Shown here: positions 3,115 to 52,952 of the stretch, piece by piece | Layout: every line of letters starts with the position of its first letter | Numbering within the stretch: the first letter of the stretch is position 1 | From: Pristiophorus japonicus | Lineage: Eukaryota | NCBI RefSeq assembly: GCF_044704955.1 | Contig: NC_091987.1 | Span: 68,944,001 to 69,008,000, forward strand | Direction of reading: 5' to 3' | Length of the DNA stretch: 64,000 nt | Translations under genes and position numbers: made by a program | The notes under the pieces: model-generated | What the model was told of the DNA's origin: nothing | The model's database searches: none | The model's input: the letters and a program-made list of their open reading frames with translations, nothing else

Positions 3115-5605
3115 AACATAAGAACATAAGAATTAAGAACAGGAGTAGGCCATCTAGCCCCTCGAGCCTGCTCCGCCATTCAACAAGATCATGGCTGATC
3201 TGGCCGTGGACTCAGTTCCGACTTACCCGCCCGCTCCCCATAACCCTTAATTCCCTTATTGGTTAAAAATCTATCTATCTGTGATTTGAATACATTCAAT
3301 GAGCTAGCCTCAACTGCTTCCTTGGGCAGAGAATTACACAGATTCACAACCCTCTGGGAGAAGAAATTCCTTCTCAACTCGGTTTTAAATTGTCTCCCCC
3401 GTATTTTGAGGCTGTGCCCCCTAGTTCTAGTCTCCCCGACCAGTGGAAACAACCTCTCTGCCTCTATCTTATCTATCCCTTTCATTATTTTAAATGTTTC
3501 TATAAGATCACCCCTCATCTTTCTGAACTCCAACGAGTAAAGACCCAGTCTACTCAATCTATCATCATAAGGTAACCCCCTCATCTCCGGAATCAGCTGC
3601 GTGAATCATCTCTGTACCCCCTCCAAAGCTCGTATATCCTTCCTTAAGTAAGGTAACCAAAACTGCACACAGTACTCCAAGTGCGGCCTCACCAATACCC
3701 TGTACAGTTGCAGCAGGACCTCCCTGCTTTTGTACTCCATCCCTCTCGCAATGAAGGCCAACATTCCATTTGCCTTCCTGATTACCTGCTGCACCTGTAA
3801 ACTTTGGGATTCATGCACAAGGACCCCCAGGTCCCTCTGCACCGCAGCATGTTGTAATTTCTCCCCATTCAAATAATATTCCCTTTTACTGTTTTTTTCC
3901 CCAAGGTGGATGACCTCACATTTTCCGACATTGTATTCCATCTGCCAAACCTTAGCCCATTCGCTTAACCTATCTAAATCTCTTTGCAGCCTCTCTGTGT
4001 CCTCTACACAACCCGCTTTTCCACTAATCTTTGTGTCATCTGCAAATTTTGTTACACTACACTCTGTCCCCTCTTCCAGGTCATCTATGTATATTGTAAA
4101 CAGTTGTGGTCCCAGCACCGATCCCTGTGGCACACCACTAACTACCGATTTCCAATCCAAAAAGAACCCATTTATCCCGACACTCTGCTTTCTGTTAGCC
4201 AGCCAATTCTCTATCCATGCTAATACATTTCCTCTGACTCCGCGTACCTTTATCTTGTGTGGCACCTTATCGAATGCCTTTTGGAAATCTAAATACACCA
4301 CATCCATCGGTACACCTCTATCCACCATGCTCGTTATATCCTCAAAGAATTCCAGTAAATTAGTTGAACATGATTTCCCCTTCATGAATCCATGTTGCGT
4401 CTGCTTGATTGCGCTATTCCTATCTAGATGTCCCGCTATTTCTTCCTTAATGATAGCTTCAAGCATTTTCCCCACTACAGATGTTAAACTAACCGGCCTA
4501 TAGTTACCTGCCTTTTGTCTGCCCCCTTTTTTAAAGAGCCGTTATATTAGCTGCTTTCCAATCCGATGGTACCTCCCCAGAGTCCAGAGAATTTTGGTAG
4601 ATTATAACGAATGCATCTGCTATAACTTCCGCCATCTCTTTTAATACCCTGGGATGCATTTCATCAGGACCAGGGGACTTGTCTACCTTGAGTCTCATTA
4701 GCCTGTCCAGTACTTACCCCCCTGGTGATAGTGATTATCTCAAGGTCCTCCCTTCTCACATTCCCGTGACCAGCAATTTTTGGCATGGTTTTTGTGTCTT
4801 CCACTGTGAAGACCGAAGCAAAATAATTGTTTAAGGTCTCAGCCATTTCCACATTTCCCATTATTAAATCCCCCTTCTCATCTTCTAAGGGACCAACATT
4901 TACTTTAGTCACTCTTTTCCGTTTTATATATCGGTAAAAGCTTTTACTGTCTGTTTTTATGTTTTGCGCAAGTTTACTTTCATAATCTATCTTTCCTTTC
5001 TTTATTGCTTTCTTAGTCATTCTTTGCTGTCGTTTAAAATTTTCCCAATCCTCTAGTTTCCCACTAACCTTGGCCACCTTATACGCATTGGTTTTTAATT
5101 TGATACTCTCCTTTATTTTCTTGGTTATCCACGGCTGGTTATCCCTTCTCTTACCGCCCTCTTTTTCACTGGAATATATTTTTGTTGAGCACTATGAAAG
5201 AGCTTCTTAAAAGTCCTCCACTGTTCCTCAATTGTGTCACCGTTTAGTCTGTGTTTCCAGTCTACTTTAGCCAACTCTGCCCTCATCCCACTGTAGTCCC
5301 CTTTGTTTAAGCATAGTACACTCGTTGAGACACTACTTCCTCACCCTCAATCTGTATTACAAATTCAACCATACTGTGATCACTCATTCCAAGAGGATCT
5401 TTTACTAGGAGATCGTTTATTATTCCTGTCTCATTACACAGGACCAGATCTAAGATAGCTTGCTCCCTTGTAGGTTCTGTAACATACTGTTCTAAGAAAC
5501 AATCCCGTATGCATTCTATGAATTCCTCTTCAAGGCTACCCTGTGCGATTTGATTTGACCAATCAATATGTAGGTTAAAATCCCCCATGGTTACTGCCGT
5601 TCCTT
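3115..5605 (-). mobile_element. CR1-clade LINE, 5'-truncated
   Basis: ORFs 3189..3584, 3606..4475, 4664..5077 and 5307..5666 encode RT/APE pieces; tail at ~3115. Confidence 0.93.
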
Positions 5606-16100: not shown

Positions 16101-19100
16101 TGACAGGTTTAGACAGGTTAGATGCAGCAAGAATGTTCCCAATGTTGGGGAAGTCCAGAACCAGGGGTCACAGTCTAAGGATAAAGGGTAAGCCATTTAG
16201 GACCGAGATGAGGAGAAACTTCTTCACCCAGAGAGTGGTGAACCTGTGGAATTCTCTACCACAGAAAGTTGTTGAGGCCAATTCACTAAATATATTCAAA
16301 AAGCAGTTAGATGCAGTCCTTACTATTAGGGGGATCAAGGCGAGAAAGCAGGAATGGGGTACTGAAGTTGCATGTTCAGCCATGAACTCATTGAATGGCA
16401 GTGCAGACTCGAAGAGCCGAATGGCCTACTCCTGCACCTATTTTCGATGCTTCTATGATTTACAGGTATAATCGTAAGAAAAAAGAAGTGATACGACATG
16501 GGTTTAAATTATTGGGCCGTGTGTAGAAGTATCAGAATGTGATGGACAGAAAATGTTGTTCTTGATCTCTCACTCTGCTTGGTACCATTCCTTTTCCAAT
16601 TTACTCAGTTCCTGATCCCAGTTATTATGGAGACCAGGGAAAATAATGTTGTCAACTGGCCATGTTCATGTGATTTTTAGTGCCTGTCTAAGTAAGAGCA
16701 GCATTGATGGAGGCTTGGGAATAGGATGCCACACTGTGCTCTCAGTCACAGGAAATGCATCATCAGTAAGAGTAGAAAAAGCAGGAAAAAGTGAAGGGCC
16801 TTTGAAAATTAACTTTAAGGCTCTGTTCGTGGACAACTACATGTTCTGATTCTTAGTCAGAGATAGACAGCTTGTTAGGTTTAGGGTTATAATACGATAA
16901 AAATCTCTTCCTCTTACTATTGAAATTGTGTAGTTAGGACTGCTGCTCCGTGGTCTGTGCTTCCTGTCAATCACAGTAGAGCTGGAACCCAGGAGCAGCA
17001 GTAGAATTTTGGGGTGTGAACTTTGAGTTTCCAGGTTAACATCTTCACCTCAGTGATCATAAGTACCCTTTTAATGGCGTAGTAAATCTTAATTACTGTC
17101 AACCTCTCTGCAACCGAAAATTATCTTTTACAAGTGTGCAGTCTCATTCTTTCAGCTTTTAATTATTGTATTTTTGAGATTTAAAAAAAAATTAAATATC
17201 TTTATTTTTACTTTTTCTCCCTGTCTTTTATCTCTCTCATAATCCAATCTTTCTTTCCCTCTCCTTGAGCTCCATTTTCCCCAAAGCCGTTTTTTGTCGT
17301 ATTTGAAGAGTTACGTCCGTTTTTTTTGGGCCCAACTATGGCAAAAAAAAACATCCAACTTTCCCAGCTTGAATTGTTGATTTTGGCGCTGCCTAGCCTG
17401 TCCTTTAGCTTTGGGGGTGGAGCCCAAGATGTGCGCCAAAAAATTGGGTTGCCAGGGTAACGAGGGACACACTGCGGGCTGAGGCTGGAAAGTGAAACAT
17501 ACAACACATCTGGCCAGCTCACAGCAACCTGCACAAGCACCTTGCACAGTGTAGCAGCTTACCAGCATTAAATTATTAGTGTTTATGCCAAAAGTCTGTC
17601 CCCCGCAACCCCCCTGGAGTCGGTGCCGCTGCTCGCCCTAGCCAAAAGGCCTCCCTTCTCCCGGTTGCCGCTGCTCGCCCTGGCCGAAAGGCTTCCCTCC
17701 CCTCCCAGTGCCGGGTGCCGCTCCTAATTCTGGCCGAAAGGCCCCCACCCCTCTCTTCTCTCCCCCTCACTCTCCCTCTCTACTGCTGCTGCTATCCGGG
17801 CCTTGGAGCTGCATCTGCTATGCTGATTCTCTTGCCTGCGCCGATTTTGTTCACTGCCCAGAAGGTTTTTCCAGAGTGGTCACATACACCGTCCTAAGAA
17901 AAATTGGAGTAAATCGGAGCTGGCCAAACTTTCTTAAATGATAAGAATTGGCATGAGCGGCAGGTTACACCCTCAACGAGGTTTAAAAAAAAAATCGTAG
18001 CCTAAAAAAAATCACGCTAGCTTAGAAACTTTGGGGAAACTTGGAGATTTGAATTTACTCCCCAAAAAAATGGTGCACGCCAAAAAAACAGCGCAGATAA
18101 TTGGGGAAAATTGAGCCCAATATTTTACTTTCTGTATCTGATTTGACATTGAATTCACTATTCTGACTTACACTTCCTGGTTCAACTCTGCTGCTATTAA
18201 AATCTCTTCAATCTGATTGGTTAATAGAAAACATAGACATAGAAAATAGGTGCAGGAGCAGGCCATTCAGCCCTTCTAGCCTGCACCGCCATTCAATGAG
18301 TTCATGGCTGAACATGAAACTTCAGTACCCCCTTCCTGCTTTCTCGCCATAACCCTTGATCCCCCGAGTAGTAAGGACTTCATCTAACTCCCTTTTGAAT
18401 ATATTTAGTGAATTGGCCTCAACTACTTTCTGTGGTAGAGAATTCCACAGGTTCACCACTCTCTGGGTGAAGAAGTTTCTCCTCATCTCGGTCCTAAATG
18501 GCTTACCCCTTATCCTCAGACTGTGACCCCTGGTTCTGGACTTCCCCAACATTGGGAACATTCTTTCTGCATCTAACCTGTCTAAACCCGTCAGAATTTT
18601 AAACGTTTCTATGAGGTCCCCTCTCATTCTTCTGAACTCCAGTGAATACAAGCCCAATTGATCCAATCTTTCTTGATAGGTCAGTCCCGCCATCCCGGGA
18701 ATCAGTCTGGTGAACCTTCGCTGCACTCCCTCAATAGCAAGAATGTCCTTCCTCAAGTTAGGAGACCAAAACTGTACACAATACTCCAGGTGTGGCCTCA
18801 CCAAGGCCCTGTACAACTGTAGCAACACCTCCCTGCCCCTGTATTCAAATCCCCTCGCTATGAAGGCCAACATGCCATTTGCTTTCTTAACCGCCTGCTG
18901 TACCTGCATGCCAACCTTCAATGACTGATGTACCATGACACCCAGGTCTCGTTGCACCTTCCCTTTTCCTAATCTGTCACCATTCAGATAATAGTCTGTC
19001 TCTCTGTTTTTACCACCAAAGTGGATAACCTCACATTTATCCACATTATACTTCATCTGCCATGCATTTGCCCACTCACCTAACCTATCCAAGTCACTCT

Positions 19101-22100
19101 GCAGCCTAATAGCATCCTCCTCGCAGCTCACACTGCCACCCAACTTAGTATCATCCGCAAATTTGGAGATACTGCATTTAATCCCCTCGTCTAAATCATT
19201 AATGTACAATGTAAACAGCTGGGGCCCCAGCACAGAACCTTGCGGCACTCCACTAGTCACTGCCTGCCATTCTGAAAAGTACCCGTTTACTCCTACTCTT
19301 TGCTTCCTGTCTGACAACCAGTTCTCAATCCACGTCAGCACACTACCCCCAATCCCATGTGCTTTAACTTTGCACATTAATCTCTTGTGTGGGACCTTGT
19401 CGAAAGCCTTCTGAAAGTCCAAATATACCACATCAACTGGTTCTCCTTTGTCCACTTTACTGGAAACATCCTCAAAAAATTCCAGAAGATTTGTCAAGCA
19501 TGATTTCCCTTTCACAAATCCATGCTGACTTGGACCTATCATGTCACCATTTTCCAGATGCACTGCTATGACATCCTTAATAATTGATTCCATCATTTTA
19601 CCCACTACTGAGGTCAGGCTGACCGGTCTATAATTCCCTGTTTTCTCTCTCCCTCCTTTTTTAAAAAGTGGGGTTACATTGGCTACCCTCCACTCCATAG
19701 GAACTGATCCAGAGTCAATGGAATGTTGGAAAATGACTGTCAATGCATCCGCTATTTCCAAGGCCACCTCCTTAAGTACTCTAGGATGCAGGCCATCAGG
19801 CCCTGGGGATTTATCTGCCTTCAATCCCATCAATTTCCCCAACACAATTTCCCGACTAATAAAGATTTCCCTCAGTTCCTCTTCCTTACTAGACCCTCTG
19901 ACCCCTTTTATATCCGGAAGGTTGTTTGTATCCTCCTTAGTGAATACCGAACCAAAGTACTTGTTCAATTGATCCGCCATTTCTTTGTTCCCCGTTATGA
20001 CTTCCCCTGATTCTGACTGCAGGGGACCTACGTTTGTCTTCACCAACCTTTTTCTCTTTACATACCTATAGAAACTTTTGCAATCCGCCTTAATGTTCCC
20101 TGCAAGCTTCTTCTCGTACTCCATTTTCCCTGTCCTAATCAAACCCTTTGTCCTCCTCTGCTGAGTTCTAAATTTCTCCCAGTCCCCAGGTTCGCTGCTA
20201 TTTCTGGCCAATTTGTATGCCACTTCCTTGGCTTTAATACTATCCCTGATTTCCCTAGATAGCCACGGTTGAGCCACCTTCCCCTTTTTATTTTTACGCC
20301 AGACAGGAATGTACAATTGTTGTACTTCATCCATGCGGTCTCTAAATGTCTGCCATTGCCCATCCACAGTCAACCTCCTAAGTATCATTCGCCAATCTAT
20401 CCTAGCCAATTCTCGCCTCATACCTTCAAAGTTACCCTTCTTTAAGTTCTGGACCATGGTCTCTGAATTTACTGTTTCATTCTCCATCCTAATGCAGAAT
20501 TCCACCATATTATGGTCACTCTTCCCCAAGGGGCCTCGCACAATGAGATTGCTAATTAATCCTCTCTCATTACACAACACCCAGTCTAAGATGGCCTCCC
20601 CCCTAGTTGGTTCCTCAACATATTGGTCTAGAAAACCATCCCTTATGCACTCCAGGAAATCCTCCTCCACCGTATTGCTTCCAGTTTGGCTAGCCCAATC
20701 TATGTGCATATTAAAGTCACCCATTATAACTGCTACACCTTTATTGCATGCACCCCTAATTTCCTGTTTGATGCCCTCCCCAACATCCCTATTACTGTTT
20801 GGAGGTCTGTACACAACTCCTACTAACGTTTTTTGCCCTTTGGTGTTCTGCAGCTCTACCCATATAGATTCCACATCATCCAAGCTAATGTCTTTCCTAA
20901 CTATTGCATTAATCTCCTCTTTAACCAGCAATGCTACCCCACCTCCTTTTCCTTTTATTCTATCCTTCCTGAATGTTGAATACCCCTGAATGTTGAGTTC
21001 CCAGCCCTGATCATCCTGGAGCCACGTCTCCGTAATCCCAATCACATCATATTTGTTAACATCTATTTGCACAATTAATTCATCCACCTTATTGCGGATA
21101 CTCCTTGCATTAAGACACAAAGCCTTCAGGCTTGTTTTATTAACACCCTTTGTCCTTTTAGAATTTTGCTGTACAGTGGCCCTTTTTGTTCTTTGCCTTG
21201 GGTTTCTCTGCCCTACACTTTTCCTCATCTCCTTTCTGTCTTTTGCTTTTGGCTCCTTTTTGTTTCCCTCTGTCTCCCTGCATTGGTTCCCATCCCCCTG
21301 CCATATTAGTTTAAATCCTCCCCAACAGCACTAGCAAACACTCCCCCGAGGACATTGGTTCCAGTCCTGCCCAGGTGCAGACCGTCCGGTTTGTACTGGT
21401 CCCACCTCCCCCAGAACCGGTCCCAATGCCCCAGGAATTTGAATCCCTCCCTGCTGCACCACTGCTCAAGCCACGTATTCATCTGCGCTATCCTGCGATT
21501 CCTACTCTGACTATCACGTGGCACTGGTAGCAATCCCGAGATTACTACTTTTGAGGTCCTACTTTTTAATTTAGCTCCTAGCTCCTTAAATTCGTTTCGT
21601 AGGACCTCATCCCTTTTTTTGCCTATGTCGTTGGTACCAATGTGCACCACGACAACTGGCTGTTCTCCCTCCCATTTCAGAATGTCCTGCACCCGCTCCG
21701 AGACATCCTTGACCCTTGCACCAGGGAGGCAACATACCATCCTGGAGTCTCGGTTGCGGCCGCAGAAACGCCTATCTATTCCCCTCACAATTGAATCCCC
21801 TATCACTATCGCTCTCCCACTCTTTTTCTTGCCCTCCTGTGCAGCAGAGCCAGCCACGGTGCCATGAACTTGGCTGCTGCTGCCCTCCCCTGATGAGTCA
21901 TTCCCCTCAACAGTACCCAAAGCGGTGTATCTGTTTTGCAGGGGGATGACCGCAGGGGACCCCTGCACTACCTTCCTTGCTCTACTCTTCCTGCTGGTCT
22001 TCCATTCCCTATCTGGCTGTGGACCCTTTCCCTGCGGTAAGACCAACTCACTACACGTGATACTCACGTCATTCTCAGCATCGTGGATGCTCCAGAGTGA

Positions 22101-25100
22101 ATCCACCCTCAGCTCCAATTCCGTAACGCGGACCGTCAGGAGCTGGAGGCGGATACACTTCCCGCACACATAGTCGTCAGGGACACCGGAAGCGTCCCTG
22201 AGTTCCCACATGGTACAGGAGGAGCATAACACCCGACCGAGCTCTCCTGCCATGTCTTAACCCTTAGATACACTTAAACTGGTAATAACAATGTTAAAAG
22301 TTACTGACCAATATAAGAAGAAAAAGAAAAACTACTCACCAATCACCAGCCAATCACTTACCCCCTAGGCTGTGACGTCACCTTTGTTTTTTTGCCTTCT
22401 CCCTGTAGCTGCACCGGTACGCCTCTCGCCGACCCCGGACTCGCGCTGCTCCGAGCTCCCGCTGGCCTTTATAGGCCTCTCGCCGACCCCGGACTCGCGC
22501 TGCTCCGAGCTCCCGCCTCCTCGACTGACTGCTCCGAGCTCCCGCTGGCCTTTATAGGCCTCTCGCCGACCCCGGACTCGCGCTGCTCCGAGCTCCCGCC
22601 TCCTCGACTGACTGCTCCGAGCTCCCGCTGGCCTTTATAGGCCTCTCGCTGACCCCGGACTCGCGCTGCTCCGAGCTCCCGCCTCCTCGACTGACTGCTC
22701 CGAGCTCCCGCTGGCCTTTATAGGCCTCTCGCCGACCCCGGACTCGCGCTGCTCCGAGCTCCCGCCTCCTCGACTGACTGCTCCGAGCTCCCGCTGGCCT
22801 TTATAGGCCTCTCGCCGACCCCGGACTCGCGCTGCTCCGAGCTCCCGCCTCCTCGAGATACAAAGTTGCTTGCCCTGTTCACACAGGTCCCAGCTGTCCT
22901 GTTGAGGGCACCATACTGCTTTGGATGTCCCACTGACCGCAACTTACCATGCAAAACCCCATAGAAAGTCTATGGGCTTGGGAAAGTCGTAACAAACGTT
23001 TGCCGCTCGCAGCAAAATCTAGACCAATGTATTCGATATATAGACGTGTCTAAAGACATTGGAGTATTTTAAGCTGCAGGCCAATAAAAATGATTAACAA
23101 CGTGTTTTCTTCTTATTTATTAGGTAATTGCTTCCTGAGCGACCAGGTATAGCCTAGGGTTGTATATGTTACGGCTTTATATTTAAATTTAATAAGGAGT
23201 TTCACCTTTTGTGCTCCATCATGCAGAAACTAGTGCAAGATTCTTTATTAAATGCAAGTATTGTGCTTCCTTTAGTGAAAATGATACCTTGTACTTACAG
23301 TAAACATCATATATTTGTAATATCATTATAGAGGAATCAGCTGATTGTTTCACCAAAACTTAGTTTTGAAACCTTATCATCAGCATAGGCGGTCCCTTGT
23401 ATTGAGGATGACTTTCTTCCACACCAAAAATGGATGCATTCAGAGGTGTTTCAATGAAGGACCAAATATGCAGGTCCTGAACTACATCGTGAAGGGTGGA
23501 AGATGCTTGTGCGTGGATTTTTTTAACACGTGGTGGCCATTGCACACCAGCCACCCTCATCAGACAGTGATGCCATGGAAAAAATATTTATGAAAATATA
23601 GTATTATTGTGAACCTCATGGTCTTTTTTTGTAACAAAATTGCTCAGGCATGTGTTTTGTTTTTGCAGGTTGCCCTGCCACAGCGATTTAACTGTTCTCA
23701 TCGCCTAAAATTGTCAGAGGACGAGGAAGCTGTTTACAATGTCTTGTTTGCTTGTTCCAGGTATATTTGAGGAATTGTGTGCTCTGAGATACAAGACACC
23801 ATCACTGCTTCCAACTATGGAATGTATTTTGGATAATCCTGGCCATTACCAGTACCGATTTGGTGTATCCCTCCTACGAAAAGGATGATAGTGTCCAATA
23901 TTGGCGGTGGGGGGGGGGGGGGGGGGGTGTGTAAGGTCACCAAAACGACAAATGTTAACTTTGTCACGATGAAATCGAGCACAGGTGACCTAATATATTT
24001 CAACACAATTGTATTGTTCAATTGTGTATTTGTAATCTAAAGTAAAAAGGTTTTTTCATGAGGATGAGTGGACCTGGGATTGAGGTGACTCAAATCTCCG
24101 GCAGATGGAACCTGAAGTACTATTGCAGACTGCACCACCTCTTTCTTAGCTCTCTGCACTTTCGGCACGTGCAGACACCAGAGTGGGAGAGTTGGGATGT
24201 GCAGCCATTCTGAGAAGCAGCACCCTGGTTTGTGCACATACAAGTTACCCCTCTGCTGCTGGGAATTGCTTCACCGAGGCACTGATTGGTGTGACAGCAG
24301 ACGTAATTGCACCAAAGCGATCAGTGGACCTGCTTCATGGTTCATTCTAGCTGATCACCCAGAGATCCTGGAACCAAGGATGTGAACTGTAAACAAATTA
24401 AAAAGATGGGTGATTTTTCCCCTTTTTTAGGTATTGTAGGAGGTATTAAAATAATCTTCAAATAAAAGTTGTATTCCATATAACAAACTGGTACTCGGTT
24501 GCCACTTGGATAAACCTGTGGCTATTATATCTGATACTAGTTTTTCAGACATGTTTATCTGGAAGCCCATTTTTCAACAGGACATAACCTATGTGCATAA
24601 ATATACATATATGCTGTTAATTATTTACATTCTTTAAATTATTCCATACAAAAAATGTGATTGTTTACATTTTTAAAACATATCAGGATAAAACAGGTTA
24701 GATGTGGTACATTTTCAATTGTCGTGTTTTATTAAATCCAGTGCTGTAAATTTCACTGCAGTGGGGTGAGAGATTTTCCTTTTAGCCTCAATTAGCCTCA
24801 CCACTGAACAGTCCACTAAAATGTCTGTTCTGCTCCACTGAACTAGAATCAATTGATGAAATGTTTTGTCAGTCTCAGCAAAAGTTAACATTATTCTCCA
24901 CTGACCATCTCTTAAAGAGACATGCAGCCCTCTGATTTTTCCTGGATGCAGTTTGTTCATTTATCCATCGTTTGCGGAACCATTTAATTACCTATTCTCT
25001 CCATAGGTCAACCTTGCAGTCATATCTGAAGAGACACGAGGGCAAGGATTATAAATCTGCTTCATCACAGGGTGCTGATAACCCCTTCAACAGAGGTAAA

Positions 25101-28100: not shown

Positions 28101-31100
28101 TCCCCATTTACTCCTACTCTTTGCTTCCTGTCTGACAACCAGTTCTCAATCTATGTCAGCACACTACCCCCAATCCCATGTGCTTTAACTTTGCACATTA
28201 ATCTCTTGTGTGGGACCTTGTCGAAAGCCTTCTGAAAGTCCAAATATACCACATCAACTGGTTCTCCCTTGTCCACTCTACTGGAAACATCCTCAAAAAA
28301 TTCCACAAGATTTGTCAAGCATGATTTCCCTTTCACAAATCCATGCTGACTTGGACCTATCATGTCACCTCTTTCCAAATGCGCTGCTATGACATCCTTA
28401 ATAATTGATTCCATCATTTTACCCACTACCGATGTCAGGCTGACTGGTCTATAATTCCCTGTTTTCTCTCTCCCTCCTTTTTTTAAAAAGTGGGGTTACA
28501 TTGGCTACCCTCCACTCGATAGGAACTGATCCAGAGTCAATGGAATGTTGGAAAATGACTGTCAATGCATCCGCTATTTCCAAGGCCACCTCCTTAAGTA
28601 CTCTGGGATGCAGTCCATCAGGCCCTGGGGATTTATCGGCCTTCAATCCCATCAATTTCCCCAACACAATTTCCCGACTAATAAGGATTTCCCTCAGTTC
28701 CTCCTCCTTACTAGACCCTCTGACCCCTTTTACATCCGGAAGGTTGTTTGTGTCCTCCTTAGTGAATACCGAACCAAAGTCCTTGTTCAATTGGTCCGCC
28801 ATTTCTTTGTTCCCAGTTATGACTTCCCCTGATTCTGACTGCAGGGGACCTACGTTTGTCTTTACTAACCTTTTTCTCTTTACATATCTATAGAAACTTT
28901 TGCAATCCGCCTTAATGTTCCCTGCAAGCTTCTTCTCGTACTCCATTTTCCCTGCCCTAATCAAACCCTTTGTCCTCCTCTGCTGAGTTCTAAATTTCTC
29001 CCAGTCCCCGGGTTCGCTGCTATTTCTGGCCAATTTGTATGCCACTTCCTTGGCTTTAATACTATCACTGATTTCCCTTGATAGCCACGGTTGAGCCACC
29101 TTCCCTTTTTTATTTTTACGCCAGACAGGAATGTACAATTGTTGTAGTTCATCCATTCGGTCTCTAAATGTCTGCCATTGCCCATCCACAGTCAACCCCT
29201 TAAGTATCATTCGCCAATCTATCCTAACCAATTCACGCCTCATACCTTCAAAGTTAGCCTTCTTTAAGTTTTGGACCATGGTCTCTGAATTAACTGTTTC
29301 ATTCTCCATCCTAATGCAGAATTCCACCATATTATGGTCACTCTTCCCCAAGGGGCCTCGCACAACGAGATTGCTAATTAATCCCCTCTCATTACACAAC
29401 ACCCAGTCTAAAATGGCCTCCCCCCTAGTTGGTTCTTCGACATATTGGTCTAGAAAACCATCCCTTATGCATTCCAGGAAATCCTCCTCCACCGTATTGC
29501 TTCCAGTTTGGCTAGCCCAATCTATGTGCATATTAAAGTCACCCATTATAACTGCTGCACCTTTATTGCATGCACTCCTAATTTCCTGTTTGATGCCCTC
29601 CCCAACATCACTACTACTGTTTGGAGGTCTGTACACAACTTCCACTAACGTTTTTTGCCCTTTGATGTTCTGCAGCTCTACCCATATAGATTCCACATCA
29701 TCCAAGCTAATGTCCTTCCTAACTATTGCATTAATCTCCTCCTTAACCAGCAATGCTACCCCACCTCCTTTTCCTTTTATTCTATCCTTCCTGAATGTTG
29801 AATACCCCTGGATGTTGAGTTCCCAGCCCTGATCATCCTGGAGCCACGTCTCTGTAATCCCAATCACATCATATTTGTTAACATTTATTTGCACAGTTAA
29901 TTCATCCACCTTATTACGGATGCTCCTTGCATTAAGACACAAAGCCTTGAGGCTTGTTTTTTTAACACCCTTTGTCCTTTTAGAATTTTGCTGTACAGTG
30001 GCCCTTTTTGTTCTTCGCCTTGGGTTTCTCTGCCCTCCACTTTTCCTCATCTCCTTTCTGTCTTTTGCTTTTGTCTCCTTTTTGTTTCCTTCTGTCTCCC
30101 GGCATTGGTTCCCATCCCCCTGCCATATTAGTTTCACTCCTCCCCAACAGCACTAGCAAACACTCCCCCTAGGACATTGGTTCCAGTCCTGCCCAGGTGC
30201 AGACCGTCCGGTTTGTACTGGTCCCACCTCCCCCAGAACCGGTTCCAATGCCCCAGGAATTTGAATCCCTCCCTGCTGCACCAAAACAATAGTCATGTGA
30301 CTGATCATCCACTTTGAAAGATTTTAGTTATGATTTTAAATTGTGTGAATTTTTCTGGATATTATTACTGGATAATGGAATATTTACTACTTGCCAACTA
30401 TTGTTCGTATTCATTACTGCTAGGTCAGGTTTAGGACACCATATACTACTCTGTCTAATATTGCCACTTTAAGAAATTCAATCCCTTATTTTTGCCACGG
30501 TAATTTTTTTTCTGCTTTCAATGCTAGCCATTTTTGTTATGGATGCTGAATGACACAATCAATTTGTGCCAAATTACAAGCAGTTTTGTACTTTAGACCT
30601 CCGACTTCTCGAAACTGAGTTAAGATCGCCCATCTTTTTTTACATGGGCCGCTTATAGCTAGCAAAAAGAGGAAATGTCAGTCGGGTAGATTCAAGTCCA
30701 AGTCCCAGAGGTGAAAGTGGTGTGGTGAACTACTACACTACTGCTTTATAACATAGATGTTCTTTATTAAGGAACAGCCTGCTGGAAAGACATACCGTGC
30801 ACAGTCTGTCAGAAAAGAACTTCTCAGAAGGCCTATTGGCCAGCCATTATTAAGTTGAGCAAGGATCAGTATTACTTCATTCAAGATGCTTATTTTGAGT
30901 CTTCAAGCTTAACTTAATTTATTTTTTGGTTTTTTTTGCATTCTTTATCCCTTTTGCCTAACGTTCACGGTCTAATGTGTGAAACAAACAATGGACTGAA
31001 ATTTAATGAGGAAGGCAGGTTGGGGGTGCGGGGAGCTCCGAGGCAGTCGGGAAACCCGGGAGAATGGGTTTCCCGTAGGCCCTGCTGGATTTAATGGCAG

Positions 31101-49100: not shown

Positions 49101-52100
49101 CCTGCCACATCTAATGGTGAAGAGCTTTGATCTGATCTGTTATTTATGGGATCGCTTGGCTCTGCCTAGCATGCTGCTTCTGCTATTTAGCTCTGTGTTG
49201 TAGCTTTCATCAGGTTGGCACCTCATTTTCAGCAATGCCTGGCATGCTCTTCTACACGCCTCATTGAACCAGAGTTGGTCACCTAGCTTGATGGTAATGG
49301 TAGAGTAAGGAATATGCCGGGCCATGAGATTACAAATTGTGGTGCAATACAATTCTGCTGCTGCTGCTGATGGCCCACAGCGCCTCATGGATGCCCAGTT
49401 TTGAGCTGATAGATCTGTTCTGAGTCTATCCCATTTAGCACGGTGGTAATGCCACACAACACAATGAAGAGTGTCCTCGGTGTGAACTTGGAGCTTCATC
49501 TCCACATGGACTGGGTGATGGTCACTCCTCCCAACACTGTCATGTACAGTTGTATCTGCGACAAGTAGATTGATGAGGACAAGGTCAAGTTTTTCCTTCG
49601 TTCATCTCCTGCCGCAAGCCCATTCTGGCAGCTATGTCCTTCAGGACTTGGTCAGTTGTGATGCTACTGAGTCACACTTTGTGATGGACACTGAAATAAC
49701 CCATCCAGAGTATATTCTATGCCCTTGCTACCACAGTGCTTCTTCCAAGTGGTGTTTAACATGATTCATCAGCTGAGAGAGGGCGTTTCGTGGTAATCAG
49801 CAAGGTTTCCTTACCCATGTTTGGCAAGGTGCCATGAAACTTCATGGGGTCCAGAATCAATGTTGAGAACTCCCAAGGCCACTCCCTCCCGACCGTATAC
49901 CATTGTGTCACCACCTCGGGTGGGTCTGTCCTGCCGGTGGGACAGGACATTCCCAGGGATGGTGATGGAGAAGTCTGGGACTTTGGCTGAAAGGTATGAT
50001 TCTGTGAGTATGACTATGTGAGGCTGTTGTGTGACTAGACTTTGGGACAACTTTCCCAATTTTGACACAAGTCCCCAGATGTTGGTGAGGAGGATTTTGC
50101 AGGGTTCGCTGGGCTCGGTGTGCCGTTGTCATGTCCGAATCAGAGGTCGATGCTGGGTGGTCCGACCGGTTTTATTCTTACTGTAGTTTTTGTAATGGTT
50201 TGTTACAACTGAGTGGCTTGCTAGACCATTTCAGAGGGCAGTTAAGAGTCAATCACATTGCTATGGGTCTGGTGTTGTATATAGGCCAGACCAGGTAAGG
50301 AGGCAGATTTCCTTCCCTAAAGTACATTAGTGAACCAGTTGGGGGTTTTACAACAATCCAATAGCTTCATCGGTCACCATCACTGATGGTAGCTTTTTAT
50401 TCCAGATTTTTTTTTCAATTAGCTGAAATCAAATTCACAAACCGCCGTGGTGCGAGTTGAACTCACGATTCTGGATTATTATTCCAATCCCCTGGATTAC
50501 TATTCCTGTAACATAACCACGATGCTACTGTACCCTAACCAGAATATTACCAGGGCTCCGAGGGTTAAATTATGAGGAGAGATTAGGTAAATTAGGCTTG
50601 TATTCCCTGGAATAATAGAAAGTTAAGGGGTAATTTGATTTGAGGTTTGTAGGATTTTGAAAGGAATCGATGGGGTCGATAGAGAGAAACTTTTTAAGCT
50701 GGTGGAGGAGTCTAGGACAAGTGGACATAACCTTAAAAGCAGAATCAGGCTATTCAGGAGAGAGGTTAGGAAACAGGGCTTCACAGAAATGGTGGTAGAA
50801 GTGTAGAACTCTCTCCCACAAAAAACAGTAGATGCTAGCTCAATTAATAATTTTAAATCTGAGATATATAGATTTTTGCAAGCCAAGAGTATTCAGGGAT
50901 ATGGAGCCAAGGCAGGTAAATGGAATAGGATACAGATCAGGCATGGTCTCATTGAATGGTGTAACAGGCTCGAAGGGCTGAATGGCCTACTCCAGTTCCT
51001 ATGTAAATCATTCTCTCTTGGATCAGTGAGTGCCACAGTTTTAAAGCACTTTAGTATCTGCATTCTCAGCTTTTTTGAAAAAGTTAATTTGAACACGTGT
51101 CTACATCAAGGTCCCAGGCCTTGTTGAAAAGGACAAAGTGTGTTTCAGGCCAGGCTTATAATCTGCAGACCCTGAAAATATAGCATTCTATCTGGGTCAA
51201 AGTGTCCCTTGAATCGTTATCAATTTTCACCAGTTTCAGATGGATCCGATTGTTTATTGCAGCTGAAGTTAGAACGTGTTACATAGAAACATAGAAAATA
51301 GGTGCAGGAGTAGGCCATTCGGCCCTTCTAGCCTGCACCGCCATTCAATGAGTTCATGGCTGAACATTCAACTTCAGTACCCCATTCCTGCTTTCTCGCC
51401 ATACCCCTTGATCCCCCTAGCAGTAAGGACCTCATCTAACTCCTTTTTGAATATATTTAGTGAATTGGCCTCAACAACTTTCTGTGGTAGAGAATTCCAC
51501 AGGTTCACCACTCTCTGGGTGAAGAAGTTCCTCCGCATCTCGGTCCTAAATGGCTTACCCCTTATCCTTAGACTGTGACCCCTGGTTCTGGACTTCCCCA
51601 ACATTGGGAACATTCTTCCTGCATCTAACCTGTCTAACCCCGTCAGAATTTTATATGTTTCTATGAGGTCCCCTCTCATTCTTCTGAACTCCAGTGAATA
51701 CAAGCCCAGTTGATCCAGTCTTTCTTGATAGGTCAGTCCCGCCATCCCGGGAATCAGTCTGGTGAACCTTCGCTGCACTCCCTCAATAGCAAGAATGTCC
51801 TTCCTCAGGTTAGGAGACCAAAACTGTACACAATACTCCAGGTGTGGCCTCACCAATGCCCTGTACAACTGTAGCAACACCTCCCTGCCCCTGTACTCAA
51901 ATCCCCTTGCTATGAAGGCCAACATGCCATTTGCTTTCTTAACCGCCTGCTGCACCTGCATGCCAACCTTCAATGACTGATGTACCATGACACCCAGGTC
52001 TCTTTGCACCTCCCCTTTTCCTAATCTGTCACCATTCAGATAATAGTCTGTCTCTCTGTTTTTACCACCAAAGTGGATAACCTCACATTTATCCACATTA

Positions 52101-52952
52101 TACTTCATCTGCCATGCATTTGCCCATTCACCTAACCTATCCAAGTCGCTCTGCAGCCTCACAGCATCCTCCTCGCAGCTCACACTGCCACCCAACTTAG
52201 TGTCATCCGCAAACTTGGAGATACTACACTCAATCCCCTCATCTAAATCATTAATGTACAGTGTAAACAGCTGGGGCCCCAGCACAGAACCCTGCGGTAC
52301 CCCACTAGTCACTGCCTGCCATTCTGAAAAGTACCCATTTACTCCTACTCTTTGCTTCCTGTCTGACAACCAGTTCTCAATCCATGTCAGTACACTACCC
52401 CCAATCCCATGTGCTCTAACTTTGCACATCAATCTCTTGTGTGGGACCTTGTCGAACGCCTTCTGAAAGTCCAAATATACCACATCAACTGGTTCTCCCT
52501 TATCCACTCTACTGGAAACATCCTCAAAAAATTCCAGAAGATTTGTCAAGCATGATTTCCCTTTCACAAATCCATGCTGACTTGGACCTATCATGTCACC
52601 TCTTTCCAAATGCACTGCTATGACATCCTTAATAATTGATTCCATCATTTTACCCACTACCGATGTCAATCTCAACAATTCGTGAATAATACATTGCTGT
52701 CAAAATGCCTAATACATGAAATTTTGTGGCAAATTAGATTTCACTATAAAAGGTTATGCTGCAATCAGTAATGGTAATATTTTTTAAACAAATGTATGTT
52801 TTACTAGGTTTGTTTGTGAGGGAACTATTGAGGACAAAATCTTTGAACTTCAGGAGAAGAAAAAGGAACTAGCAAAGAAGGTGCTGTCAGGAACTGGAGG
52901 ATCCTTTACCAAACTTACACTGGCTGATCTTCGAATTCTATTTGGTGTGTGA
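7074..52952 (+). CDS. TTF2: TTF2, 3' 14 coding exons: join(7074-7187,10445-10595,13481-13586,14009-14208,14489-14642,23669-23760,25007-25095,33707-33849,34459-34629,36302-36360,41979-42132,42773-42855,44238-44312,52808-52952); 5' exons lie upstream of the window
   Basis: Manually spliced 1736-nt open frame with consistent phases. SNF2 motifs [68 protein letters not shown]-terminus [13 protein letters not shown] matches the recalled vertebrate TTF2 end. Confidence 0.95.
7330..7405 (+). mobile_element. tRNA-derived SINE head fragment
   Basis: A-box-like region plus B-box GGTTCAAGCCC. Confidence 0.5.
7413..8410 (-). mobile_element. Internal fragment of a second CR1 family (RT N-terminal half)
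   Basis: ORFs 7483..7866, 7812..8144, 8068..8319 ([26 protein letters not shown]). Confidence 0.88.
8760..9778 (+). mobile_element. CR1 3' end interrupted by an RTE insertion
   Basis: [11 protein letters not shown]...[13 protein letters not shown]; resumes at ~9562 and ends in a ttctatga tail. Confidence 0.85.
9072..9561 (+). mobile_element. RTE-clade LINE 3' fragment
   Basis: [16 protein letters not shown]...RMPDTR...GGQRK; C-terminal CxxC...HLRTH. Confidence 0.85.
10445..10595 (+). CDS. TTF2: TTF2 exon (motif Ia, [14 protein letters not shown]...YHGP)
   Basis: acag|AT...GC|gtgag; phase 1/2. Confidence 0.93.
10856..11654 (+). mobile_element. Non-autonomous DNA transposon (MITE), probably Harbinger-type
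   Basis: TIRs GAGTTCAATTTTCC / GGAAAATTGAGCCC; homologous inverted copy at 17267-18118. Confidence 0.75.
12031..13440 (-). mobile_element. CR1 (second family) 3' portion, RT
   Basis: ORFs 12211..12660, 12638..12925, 12942..13199. Confidence 0.9.
13481..13586 (+). CDS. TTF2: TTF2 exon ([19 protein letters not shown])
   Basis: tatag|G...AAT|gtaag; phase 2/0. Confidence 0.92.
14009..14208 (+). CDS. TTF2: TTF2 exon (motifs [15 protein letters not shown]...[11 protein letters not shown])
   Basis: ttcag|GTC...AA|gtaag; phase 0/2; within ORF 13937..14212. Confidence 0.95.
14489..14642 (+). CDS. TTF2: TTF2 exon ([14 protein letters not shown]...LLLRRMK...GKPL)
   Basis: ttcag|G...CTG|gtata; phase 2/0. 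Confidence 0.94.
14982..15593. mobile_element. MITE related to the 10856 family
   Basis: Imperfect TIRs GGGTCCAATTTTCCAC / GTGAAAATTCAACCC. Confidence 0.55.
15890..16460 (+). mobile_element. CR1 3' fragment of the young subfamily
   Basis: [19 protein letters not shown]..., near-identical to the end of ORF 18322..21228. Confidence 0.9.
17267..18118 (-). mobile_element. MITE, inverted copy of the 10856-11654 family
   Basis: TIRs GAGCTCCATTTTCCCC / GGGGAAAATTGAGCCC; both subterminal regions are reverse complements of the 10856 copy. Confidence 0.78.
18322..21228 (-). CDS. CR1 ORF2p: APE endonuclease + reverse transcriptase
   Basis: LNARSI, GITETW, YRPP, MGDFN, SDH; RT motifs [23 protein letters not shown]; no stops. 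Confidence 0.95.
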   Translation of the reverse strand: MRKSVGQRNPRQRTKRATVQQNSKRTKGVNKTSLKALCLNARSIRNKVDELIVQIDVNKYDVIGITETWLQDDQGWELNIQGYSTFRKDRIKGKGGGVALLVKEEINAIVRKDISLDDVESIWVELQNTKGQKTLVGVVYRPPNSNRDVGEGIKQEIRGACNKGVAVIMGDFNMHIDWASQTGSNTVEEDFLECIRDGFLDQYVEEPTRGEAILDWVLCNERGLISNLIVRGPLGKSDHNMVEFCIRMENETVNSETMVQNLKKGNFEGMRRELARIDWRMILRRLTVDGQWQTFRDRMDEVQQLYIPVWRKNKKGKVAQPWLSREIRDSIKAKEVAYKLARNSSEPGDWEKFRTQQRRTKGLIRTGKMEYEKKLAGNIKADCKSFYRYVKRKRLVKTNVGPLQSESGEVITGNKEMADQLNKYFGSVFTKEDTNNLPDIKGVRGSSKEEELREIFISREIVLGKLMGLKADKSPGPDGLHPRVLKEVALEIADALTVIFQHSIDSGSVPMEWRVANVTPLFKKGGREKTGNYRPVSLTSVVGKMMESIIKDVIAVHLENGDMIGPSQHGFVKGKSCLTNLLEFFEDVSSKVDKGEPVDVVYLDFQKAFDKVPHKRLMCKVKAHGIGGSVLTWIENWLSDRKQRVGVNGYFSEWQAVTSGVPQGSVLGPQLFTLYINDLDEGIKCSISKFADDTKLGGSVSCEEDAIRLQSDLDRLGEWANAWQMKYNVDKCEVIHFGGKNRETDYYLNGDRLGKGKVQRDLGVMVHQSLKVGMQVQQAVKKANGMLAFIARGFEYRGREVLLQLYRALVRPHLEYCVQFWSPNLRKDILAIEGVQRRFTRLIPGMAGLTYQERLDQLGLYSLEFRRMRGDLIETFKILTGLDRLDAERMFPMLGKSRTRGHSLRIRGKPFRTEMRRNFFTQRVVNLWNSLPQKVVEANSLNIFKRELDEVLTTRGIKGYGEKAGRGY
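21306..22253 (-). CDS. CR1 ORF1p: CxxC..CxxC zinc finger/leucine zipper + SGNH (GDSL) esterase
   Basis: CSSC...CGKC, coiled-coil heptads, IGDSIVR, HIGTNDI, DGLHL. Confidence 0.92.
   Translation of the reverse strand: MAGELGRVLCSSCTMWELRDASGVPDDYVCGKCIRLQLLTVRVTELELRVDSLWSIHDAENDVSITCSELVLPQGKGPQPDREWKTSRKSRARKVVQGSPAVIPLQNRYTALGTVEGNDSSGEGSSSQVHGTVAGSAAQEGKKKSGRAIVIGDSIVRGIDRRFCGRNRDSRMVCCLPGARVKDVSERVQDILKWEGEQPVVVVHIGTNDIGKKRDEVLRNEFKELGAKLKSRTSKVVISGLLPVPRDSQSRNRRIAQMNTWLEQWCSREGFKFLGHWDRFWGRWDQYKPDGLHLGRTGTNVLGGVFASAVGEDLN
22421..22856. repeat. Tandem array of ~5 GC-rich 83-bp monomers at the LINE 5' end
   Basis: GGCCTTTATAGGCC recurs at 22464, 22547, 22630, 22713 and 22796 (period 83), near-perfect identity. 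Confidence 0.95.
23669..23760 (+). CDS. TTF2: TTF2 exon (VALPQR...[14 protein letters not shown])
   Basis: tgcag|GTT...AG|gtata; phase 0/2. Confidence 0.92.
25007..25095 (+). CDS. TTF2: TTF2 exon ([12 protein letters not shown]...DNPFNR)
   Basis: catag|G...G|gtaaa; phase 2/1. Confidence 0.9.
25310..26870 (-). mobile_element. Degenerate CR1 3' fragment interrupted by a MITE
   Basis: CR1 3'UTR/RT sequence on both sides of 25928-26547. Confidence 0.75.
25928..26547. mobile_element. MITE inserted in CR1
   Basis: TIRs GGGCCCAAATTTGATC / GATCAATTTCGGGTCCC. Confidence 0.65.
27033..30283 (-). mobile_element. Young CR1 copy, 5'-truncated within ORF1, ORF2 disrupted
   Basis: ORFs 28449..30137, 28151..28426, 27432..27932, near-identical to the full-length copy. 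Confidence 0.95.
31341..33230 (+). mobile_element. CR1 (second family) RT + 3' end with composite tail, nested in a GC-rich repeat (~30993-33600)
   Basis: [17 protein letters not shown] 32316..32819; tttctatg tails at ~33210 and ~33380. Confidence 0.85.
33707..33849 (+). CDS. TTF2: TTF2 exon (VAREFG...[21 protein letters not shown])
   Basis: ttcag|TA...ACG|gtaag; phase 1/0; tandem CAGTAG acceptor. Confidence 0.92.
34459..34629 (+). CDS. TTF2: TTF2 exon ([20 protein letters not shown]...KSTK)
   Basis: tatag|GCT...AAG|gtatg; phase 0/0. Confidence 0.92.
34800..36110 (-). mobile_element. Old SINE fragment followed by a degenerate L2-like LINE 3' region
   Basis: L2-type tail (taaggcagtatataaatacaagttg on -) and purine-rich degenerate RT-like sequence. 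Confidence 0.5.
36302..36360 (+). CDS. TTF2: TTF2 exon ([19 protein letters not shown])
   Basis: gccag|ATC...AG|gtaca; phase 0/2. Confidence 0.9.
36531..37231. mobile_element. MITE with 16-bp TIRs and 3-bp TSD (ATT), Harbinger-like
   Basis: att|GGCCCTGAAATTCCGG ... CCGGAATTTCAGTGCC|att. Confidence 0.8.
37798..40220 (-). mobile_element. RTE-clade LINE, 5'-truncated and frameshifted
   Basis: [43 protein letters not shown]; (GAT)n tail. Confidence 0.9.
40220..40900 (-). mobile_element. Second, more degenerate Harbinger transposase relic
   Basis: Frameshifted pieces [11 protein letters not shown] / [12 protein letters not shown] / FQAGTGNLCNI / [11 protein letters not shown]; the first two match the relic at 1-355. 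Confidence 0.55.
41979..42132 (+). CDS. TTF2: TTF2 exon (motif [13 protein letters not shown]...DGSV...FNTDPKGPQ)
   Basis: ctcag|T...CAG|gtacc; phase 2/0. Confidence 0.94.
42773..42855 (+). CDS. TTF2: TTF2 exon (motif [29 protein letters not shown])
   Basis: cacag|GTC...TG|gtaag; phase 0/2. Confidence 0.94.
43040..43323 (+). mobile_element. Solo LTR (284 bp)
   Basis: TGTAATGTAT...ATACATTACA inverted termini, internal AATAAA, flanks CACAC/CACAT. Confidence 0.7.
43330..43742 (+). mobile_element. CR1 3' fragment
   Basis: [17 protein letters not shown]..., cttatgttc tail. Confidence 0.88.
44238..44312 (+). CDS. TTF2: TTF2 exon (motif [19 protein letters not shown])
   Basis: ttcag|G...AG|gtaac; phase 2/2. 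Confidence 0.94.
45090..46600 (+). mobile_element. Penelope-like retroelement relic (RT + GIY-YIG), with a small CR1 tail inserted at ~45931-46020
   Basis: [26 protein letters not shown]; [12 protein letters not shown]; RFTEHLRSV. Confidence 0.82.
46700..47522 (-). mobile_element. RTE-clade LINE 3' fragment
   Basis: [30 protein letters not shown]...HLRTH; (GAT)n tail. Confidence 0.88.
47770..48437 (+). mobile_element. Old CR1 ORF2 fragment, probably continuing the relic at ~44790-45085
   Basis: Degenerate ANFNGMR...PW...KSPGPDG.HPRVL. Confidence 0.55.
48440..50530 (-). mobile_element. Degenerate APE-RT non-LTR element of a third family (5' half); related pieces at ~62060-62345 and ~63700-63850
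   Basis: [47 protein letters not shown]. Confidence 0.75.
50540..51005 (+). mobile_element. Old CR1 3' fragment
   Basis: LNYEERL...LYSLE; CR1-type 3'UTR. Confidence 0.75.
51281..52668 (-). mobile_element. Young CR1, 5'-truncated, open RT frame (434 aa)
   Basis: ORF 51374..52678, near-identical to the ORF2 C-terminal half at 18322. Confidence 0.95.
52808..52952 (+). CDS. TTF2: TTF2 terminal coding exon ([11 protein letters not shown]...[10 protein letters not shown])
   Basis: actag|G...GTG TGA; stop at 52950-52952. Confidence 0.94.

Follow-up and report, generated by a model that had tools for sequence, protein, structure and literature searches.

A conserved slippery heptamer at the ORF1/ORF2 junction of CR1 retrotransposons points to a probable programmed −1 frameshift

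Sequence comparison indicates that a recoding signal at the ORF1/ORF2 junction of CR1 retrotransposons is real and conserved, and that it quite probably acts as a programmed −1 frameshift whose slippery site, K_UUA_AAC (K = U or G), abuts the stop codon of ORF1, and which would give a 1310-aa ORF1-ORF2 fusion. The junction combines a slippery heptamer, a stop codon adjacent to it, ORF2 in the −1 register, an open linker, synonymous-site conservation and a G-run at +11, and it has no conserved ATG; from these parts we infer tandem slippage of tRNA-Leu and tRNA-Asn, a fusion protein and a stimulatory role for the G-run. The starting point was an intact esterase-type CR1 LINE with both ORFs open on the minus strand of the window, i.e., the whole 64-kb stretch of DNA analysed here, whose numbering is used throughout. 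According to the portion consulted of a 2026 survey (PMC13343379), CR1 is the dominant retrotransposon of most vertebrates, and the mode of ORF2 translation is settled for only a few LINEs.

Anatomy and relatives of the element

At the 5' end of the element, read along the minus strand, the UTR consists of an array (22446..22856) in which an 83-bp monomer with a TATAAA is repeated five times almost without change. ORF1 (21306..22253) encodes 315 aa, with Cys pairs in the N-terminal part, an SGNH esterase in the C-terminal part (PF13472, E 4e-14) and the ending ...GEDLN-stop. The intact ORF2 (18322..21309, −1 frame) consists of the linker, an APE endonuclease and a reverse transcriptase (RT), with domain matches to PF03372, PF14529 and PF00078 (Exo_endo_phos, RVT_1). 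The 3' UTR (18223..18321, end approximate), as read from the sequence, contains the inverted pair GGTGCAGG/CCTGCACC together with short repeats of the TTTCTATG type, i.e., the element ends in a hairpin and a short tandem repeat tail without poly(A); a target-site duplication was not recognised. The membership features of an esterase-type vertebrate CR1 LINE (SGNH ORF1, APE and RT in ORF2, hairpin/short-repeat 3' tail) are thus present, and near-identical junctions occur in CR1-labelled rows in the portion consulted of the PMC13343379 supplement. Protein searches found ORF1 homologs in sharks, rays and chimaera, the closest named ones being from sharks and rays.

Some database entries are worth recording. 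A protein labelled as a Pseudomonas aeruginosa SGNH hydrolase (P0007) is a shark-type CR1 ORF1 (62% identity) and probably reflects contamination. Three others (P0121, P0038, P0061; one of them carries the name "hydroxyacid oxidase 2") continue past the esterase, by way of (G/D)FKL, into sequence of the ORF2 frame, as copies or gene models in which the −1 frame was entered upstream. Among the 11 matches to longer homologs, the sole shark/ray join of esterase and endonuclease, P0121, is a gene model and offers no evidence for a natural fusion. Other long open frames in the window, both on the minus strand (51374-52699, 441 aa; 3606-4541, 311 aa), are possibly LINE fragments.

The heptamer, the stop codon and the −1 register

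As the initial annotation had read it, ORF1 ends GAT TTA AAC TAA on the minus strand, which places U_UUA_AAC in the ORF1 frame (21309..21315) directly before the stop (21306..21308; TAA here, TAG or TGA in relatives). Within ORF1, in-frame heptamers of the slippery type occur at two positions only, 21318 and 21315, right at its end; this placement and the synonymous-site conservation described below go beyond what chance would give. The second of the two heptamers, G_GAU_UUA (21318-21312, minus strand), overlaps U_UUA_AAC from one codon upstream and requires the GAT codon, and hence belongs to the young GAT subfamily. The −1 frame also proved open, as had been proposed: it spans 21330-18322, and 995 codons lead from the shift site through endonuclease and RT, so that simple arithmetic on the coordinates (315+995) predicts a fusion of 1310 aa. 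Between the shift site and the NARS motif of the endonuclease lies a linker of 66 codons (21112..21309, minus strand), which holds the sole in-frame ATG ahead of that motif (21226..21228, codon 28 from the shift), an ATG that is not conserved in other subfamilies. Three of the features by which a frameshift site is recognised, an in-frame X_XXY_YYZ, a downstream −1 ORF open from the heptamer and conservation of the heptamer beyond protein need, are found here.

The heptamer had been named as the coronavirus slippery site, and U_UUA_AAC is indeed so listed in passages of PMC5009743 and PMC3542737 (coronaviruses, IBV). These passages also place it among the most shifty heptamers on mammalian ribosomes and list GUU as a tolerated XXX variant of equine arteritis virus; the variant of arterivirus type is thus G_UUA_AAC. 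In the mechanism that we propose, most ribosomes would terminate at UAA and release the 315-aa ORF1p, and a fraction would slip one base back, the Leu- and Asn-tRNAs leaving UUA AAC to pair anew with UUU AAA (or GUU AAA). The slipped ribosomes would then read on through the linker, the endonuclease and the RT, yielding a minority 1310-aa product that resembles gag-pol.

Conservation within the family and across lineages

This is a large, young family, with 135,748 candidates in the 5.9-Gb genome and identity over 100 aa in all 150 that were scored. Looking for the heptamer and the open linker throughout the family, the check suggested in the initial annotation, gave a favourable outcome, as the heptamer is present in all 30 young copies (28 of them open to the endonuclease NARS motif) and in all 15 lineages described below, with the linker open in most. 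A random sample of 120 evenly spaced 10-kb stretches (1.2 Mb), searched with a profile omitting the last eight ORF1 residues, contained 19 junctions, ten with G_TTA_AAC, seven with T_TTA_AAC, one with AAT and one offset by an indel, i.e., an exact K_TTA_AAC in 17/19. At genome scale, 98% of 31,231 exact matches in one flank context have G (24,965) or U (5,645, as T) at the first heptamer base, and A or C accounts for the other 621.

A second, 5'-truncated copy in the window had been put forward as a caveat, and it does read GAG TGA AAC TAA (30139-30128, minus strand; junction G TGA AAC TAA at 30128..30137). Its force as a counter-example is lost, as genome counts identify it as a rare point mutant (TGA for TTA, 101 matches) of the G_UUA_AAC subfamily (24,965 matches). 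A TGA subfamily that would contradict heptamer conservation was ruled out by the same counts (0.4% of matches).

Protein-guided searches yielded further shark families and metagenome contigs. Altogether 164 junction matches were obtained, of which 149 were kept after leaving out nine non-CR1 or deleted loci and out-of-register copies, and these were reduced to 15 lineages (seven shark, seven bird-type and one distant), the terminal residues being absent from the profile. This set excludes shark clusters of fewer than three copies, as well as two copies that have an indel close by, and includes two additional bird-type copies. The seven metagenome lineages called bird-type are presumed to be so from their likeness to avian CR1 proteins.

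The terminal Leu is encoded by TTA and the Asn by AAC in 15/15 lineages (zero parsimony changes on the tree), a result to be read with the caution that the lineages are related and that one two-fold His codon is likewise invariant (11/11 His-coding lineages). Over the same lineages, each third base in the 23 codons upstream undergoes 2-7 changes (mean 4.35, none zero), and the codon of another invariant Leu (in DGLHL) changes seven times, five different codons being used for it among the 149 kept matches. The residue before the terminal Leu also changes seven times, its third base being U or G only, and the ORF1 stop alternates between TAA and TAG. At the protein level, LN is the ending of 46 out of 48 homologs with a complete C-terminus, and L2-type catfish esterases have other endings, so LN is probably no requirement of the fold.

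TTAAAC plus stop stands at the junction, judged by eye, in 17 of the 26 places seen in consensus rows of the PMC13343379 supplement, all preceded by T, a count that was motif-searched and is hence circular and without denominator. The abbreviations of these rows, in which the motif is T_TTA_AAC_TRR, read as alligator, crocodile, bearded dragon, coelacanth, bullfrog, bowfin, halosaur, chimaera, stingray, sawfish, catshark and dogfish. Synonymous variants of TTAAAC plus stop gave no CR1 junction among the 24 of 73 places seen in the same supplement. Among contigs of other organisms, which reveal neither frame nor strand, positions 21315 (T to G) and 21316 vary and no variant is listed at 21314-21306, in a comparison where one variant table is conservative and misses flanking variants shown by the other. 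The sequencing runs listed as carrying the sequence included none of RNA, an outcome that says nothing about expression.

The heptamer is absent from 9/19 non-shark loci that reach the ORF1 end, namely from a bird-type copy that has lost the junction, from two loci of bacterial genomes and from six distant esterase-like frames, in five of which the endonuclease motif was not found downstream. A distant relative on a metagenome contig (L031:674-830, 37% identity) keeps G_UUA_AAC_UAG, the G-run and an open −1 linker of 48 codons. Searches of viral contigs confirmed none of 78 candidates, and those of genome contigs gave seven weak matches, none with a usable CR1 junction.

The G-run and candidate stimulators

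Past the heptamer, from +11 to +20, lies a conserved G-run, GGGGG-NN-GGG (21289..21298, minus strand), and across 21 junction sequences G reaches 90-100% at +11..+15 and 81-90% at +18..+20. Its Gly codons are GGG in the sequences listed for that comparison, which suggests selection on the G-run at the RNA level. The G-run is likely the core of a 3' stimulator. The idea of a G-quadruplex, raised by the initial annotation on the basis of four G-tracts, survives only in part: the tracts are present in the window copy and score high (G4Hunter 1.40, top 0.5% of windows within the element), but their loops (2, 10 and 7) miss the canonical 1-7 pattern, and the four-tract set is not conserved. A canonical set occurs at 0/21 junctions and a relaxed one at 6/21, all from the window's own group, and a conserved four-tract quadruplex was accordingly rejected; a two-tier quadruplex may be conceivable. 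A local hairpin 5-9 nt downstream was ruled out as well, none of eight sequences having a significant fold (z −1.1 to +0.5 in 8/8, pseudoknots being outside the fold model).

A scan of the element for partners of the G-run brought up a ~20-bp candidate duplex (11 contiguous and nine further pairs) with a site 630 nt upstream. The putative upstream arm lies within ORF1 (21938..21960, minus strand, codons for SPAVIPLQ) and the downstream arm at 21272..21301 (minus strand), its first paired base at +8, and the resulting 7-nt spacer falls inside the range of 5-9 nt given for shift sites in a passage of PMC3542737. The duplex has an energy of −36.8 kcal/mol vs −23 to −29.7 in 15 shuffled elements. 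With a 30-nt query it reaches −38.0 kcal/mol, a value attained by 0/150 synonymously recoded ORF1s (mean −25.4, sd 2.9) and, among 51 ORF2 30-mers, by one, i.e., the query's own position. The ensemble probability of the duplex is 0.28-0.32, and the whole-element fold lacks it.

Comparative data on the duplex are mixed. The ORF1 arm is the best site in 8/43 copies, all of the GAT/GAG/GGG group, and ranks 1-8 among about 21 ORF1 sites in 12 lineages. A cognate-versus-swapped covariation test gave p = 0.32 with ten lineages and p = 0.04 with a five-lineage subset (control site in the same test, 0.84 and 0.59). At a fixed register, itself derived from the window element's own family, 9.9 of 13 pairs form vs 5.4-7.9 when it is slid, with no pairing excess in the bird-type and D lineages. 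Changes in the arms are mostly one-sided, from G-C to G-U, and bird-type lineages have a core of only 5-7 pairs, which Pro-Leu codons could give by chance. Taken together, the upstream duplex is strong in the window element's family and shows no significant covariation, and its role as the partner of the G-run must be considered speculative. It is, to our mind, doubtful that the esterase-endonuclease-RT fusion of CR1 would arise by an ancient −1 frameshift stimulated by this particular duplex between the G-run and ORF1. If it did, the paused ribosome would sit within an mRNA loop, and trailing ribosomes would melt the upstream arm, tuning the ORF1:ORF2 ratio by ribosome density. The upstream arm (21938-21968, minus strand) is also able to form a local hairpin of its own (−15.9 kcal/mol), which might serve as a switch in competition with the duplex.

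Pairing of the G-run with the 3' tail of the element found no support, as the best post-ORF2 sites in 14 copies with both junction and ORF2 end are inconsistent and often lie in flanking DNA. In two of the 14 the tail hairpin itself comes out as this best site (at ranks 3 and 7); for the window copy, rank 6 of 114 is the highest that any site beyond ORF2 attains.

The linker and alternative routes to ORF2

Between heptamer and endonuclease motif, the −1 frame runs without a stop in 7/10 shark cluster majorities and in 7/9 single non-shark copies, over linkers of 37-88 codons in which the other two frames have 1-11 stops each; the probability of whole-linker openness by chance is 0.004-0.22 per lineage. 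The three shark majorities that are not open represent 3-4 old copies each and have A-run indels, and the two non-shark exceptions comprise one copy that is cut off and one that matched an early motif though in another comparison it reads open to the endonuclease. The position of the first Met differs among linkers (28, 18, 42, 27, 21, 3, 2), and the AGT family has no Met at all in a linker of 55 codons (probability of being open, 0.013), i.e., we found no conserved start codon near the ORF1 stop, the Met being variable in position or absent. The AGT subfamily (L354, L356, L357, L363) also has a 3' UTR of ~400 nt vs roughly 100 nt in its relatives.

The main competitor of the frameshift is termination followed by reinitiation in the manner of L1 and SART1, whereby ribosomes would stop at the ORF1 end and restart on an ORF2 AUG or near-cognate codon, the motif being a termination or tethering signal. 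The window copy possesses an in-frame ATG (21228), and five of the nine non-shark copies have an in-frame Met at position 2-3, just behind the stop, as do some shark copies. L057 (2092-2102), L273 and L298, all of which keep the heptamer, show a UAAUG whose AUG is in frame with ORF2, and the distance of 0-2 nt between stop and in-frame ATG in several lineages would suit reinitiation. In L1, moreover, any sense codon can replace the first ORF2 ATG (passage in PMC1965478). However, reinitiation leaves unexplained the invariance of TTA AAC, the restriction of the first base to U or G and the linkers that are open upstream of the first Met or are Met-less, and the TAG lineages have GCT, GGT or GAT at the stop, i.e., non-initiators; we consider it improbable. 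It is less probable still that both routes operate, with an ancestral frameshift to which some lineages added reinitiation at a nearby AUG, or from which they switched to it. Such a history would account for a conserved heptamer alongside lineage-specific ATGs adjoining the stop, yet ATG positions look random within the 37-88-codon linkers and every lineage keeps the heptamer.

The least probable explanation in our estimate is that the motif has some other RNA or DNA role (splice/branch site, poly(A) signal, protein binding, transcriptional slippage) and that the source of ORF2 is a separate RNA or an edited one. We take AACUAAU to be branch-point-like and UUUAAA to resemble a weak poly(A) signal, which would speak for such a role. 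The motif is, however, followed by a purine-rich G-run and not by a polypyrimidine tract, it is locked to the codon frame of ORF1 and the −1 register of ORF2, and no recurrent joint or insertion was seen at the site in the contigs compared (contigs only, their RNA status guessed). A −1 frameshift at the heptamer is the reading that we prefer.

Implications and comparison with known systems

A description of frameshifting in CR1 was not found in literature searches on CR1, LINEs, frameshifting and TRE5-A, and older CR1 work (Haas 1997, Kajikawa 1997, 2012) may bear on both mechanism and novelty. "Frameshift" and "overlap" are absent from the main texts, as far as consulted, of PMC13343379 and PMC4120745, and "frameshift" from the consulted part of PMC3905857; the chicken genome report, in the portion consulted, speaks of frameshifting in connection with ALV-E but not with CR1. 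New here are the explanation of the TGA copy, the genome-scale U-or-G rule, the unbiased sample, the rejection of the four-tract quadruplex and the lead on an upstream duplex. If the frameshift is true, the CR1 RT would be joined covalently, and in a fixed proportion, to the esterase ORF1 that binds membranes, as in retroviral gag-pol. Annotated CR1 ORF2 starts would then be wrong and "intact" copies would have to be judged from the heptamer, and CR1 retrotransposition assays would require the native junction. It would also mean that a shift site of nidovirus type exists in a cellular, cross-vertebrate setting, open to a simple reporter test.

Among other LINEs, SART1 couples the translation of its ORF2 through UAAUG, and the zebrafish element ZfL2-1 reportedly (Kajikawa's study of 2012) relies on stop-codon suppression, which would give a fusion. 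ZfL2-1 shares an esterase ORF1 with the window CR1. No slippery heptamer is known to be invoked for L1, SART1 or ZfL2-1, whereas in CR1 the frame of ORF2 is −1 and begins with the heptamer. Human L1, SART1 and ZfL2-1 share with CR1 a bicistronic LINE RNA whose ORF2 depends on ORF1 translation. In L1 the restart is AUG-independent (PMC1965478, in part). The earlier statement that the LINEs studied translate ORF2 by reinitiation or coupling does not extend to Dictyostelium TRE5-A and TRE3-A, whose ORF2 is stated to need a −1 frameshift (PMC5911963, Fig. 1 legend). These are APE-RT non-LTR elements like CR1, from another clade and with another ORF1, and the likeness drawn here concerns the stated mechanism. 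The window element itself is a member of the canonical vertebrate CR1 (type IVB, subgroup 7; passages in PMC4120745 and PMC13343379), with its esterase ORF1, APE-RT ORF2 and 3' hairpin/short repeats.

The closest parallel is the ORF1a/ORF1b junction of nidoviruses, which, according to passages in PMC5009743 and PMC3542737, likewise has U_UUA_AAC with a tolerated G_UU variant, a −1 shift into the polymerase frame and a conserved 3' element at about 7-10 nt. Unlike a nidovirus, CR1 is a cellular retrotransposon in which no local pseudoknot or hairpin was found, and the best partner of its G-run lies upstream. A distant strand that pairs immediately 3' of the shift site, as in our candidate, is known from the long-range stimulator of barley yellow dwarf virus (passage in PMC3542737), and antisense-induced frameshifting uses a separate strand 3' of the shift site, there for a +1 shift (PMC1616946, in part). 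In contrast to both of these cases, the candidate partner in CR1 would be located 5', inside the ORF that has just been translated.
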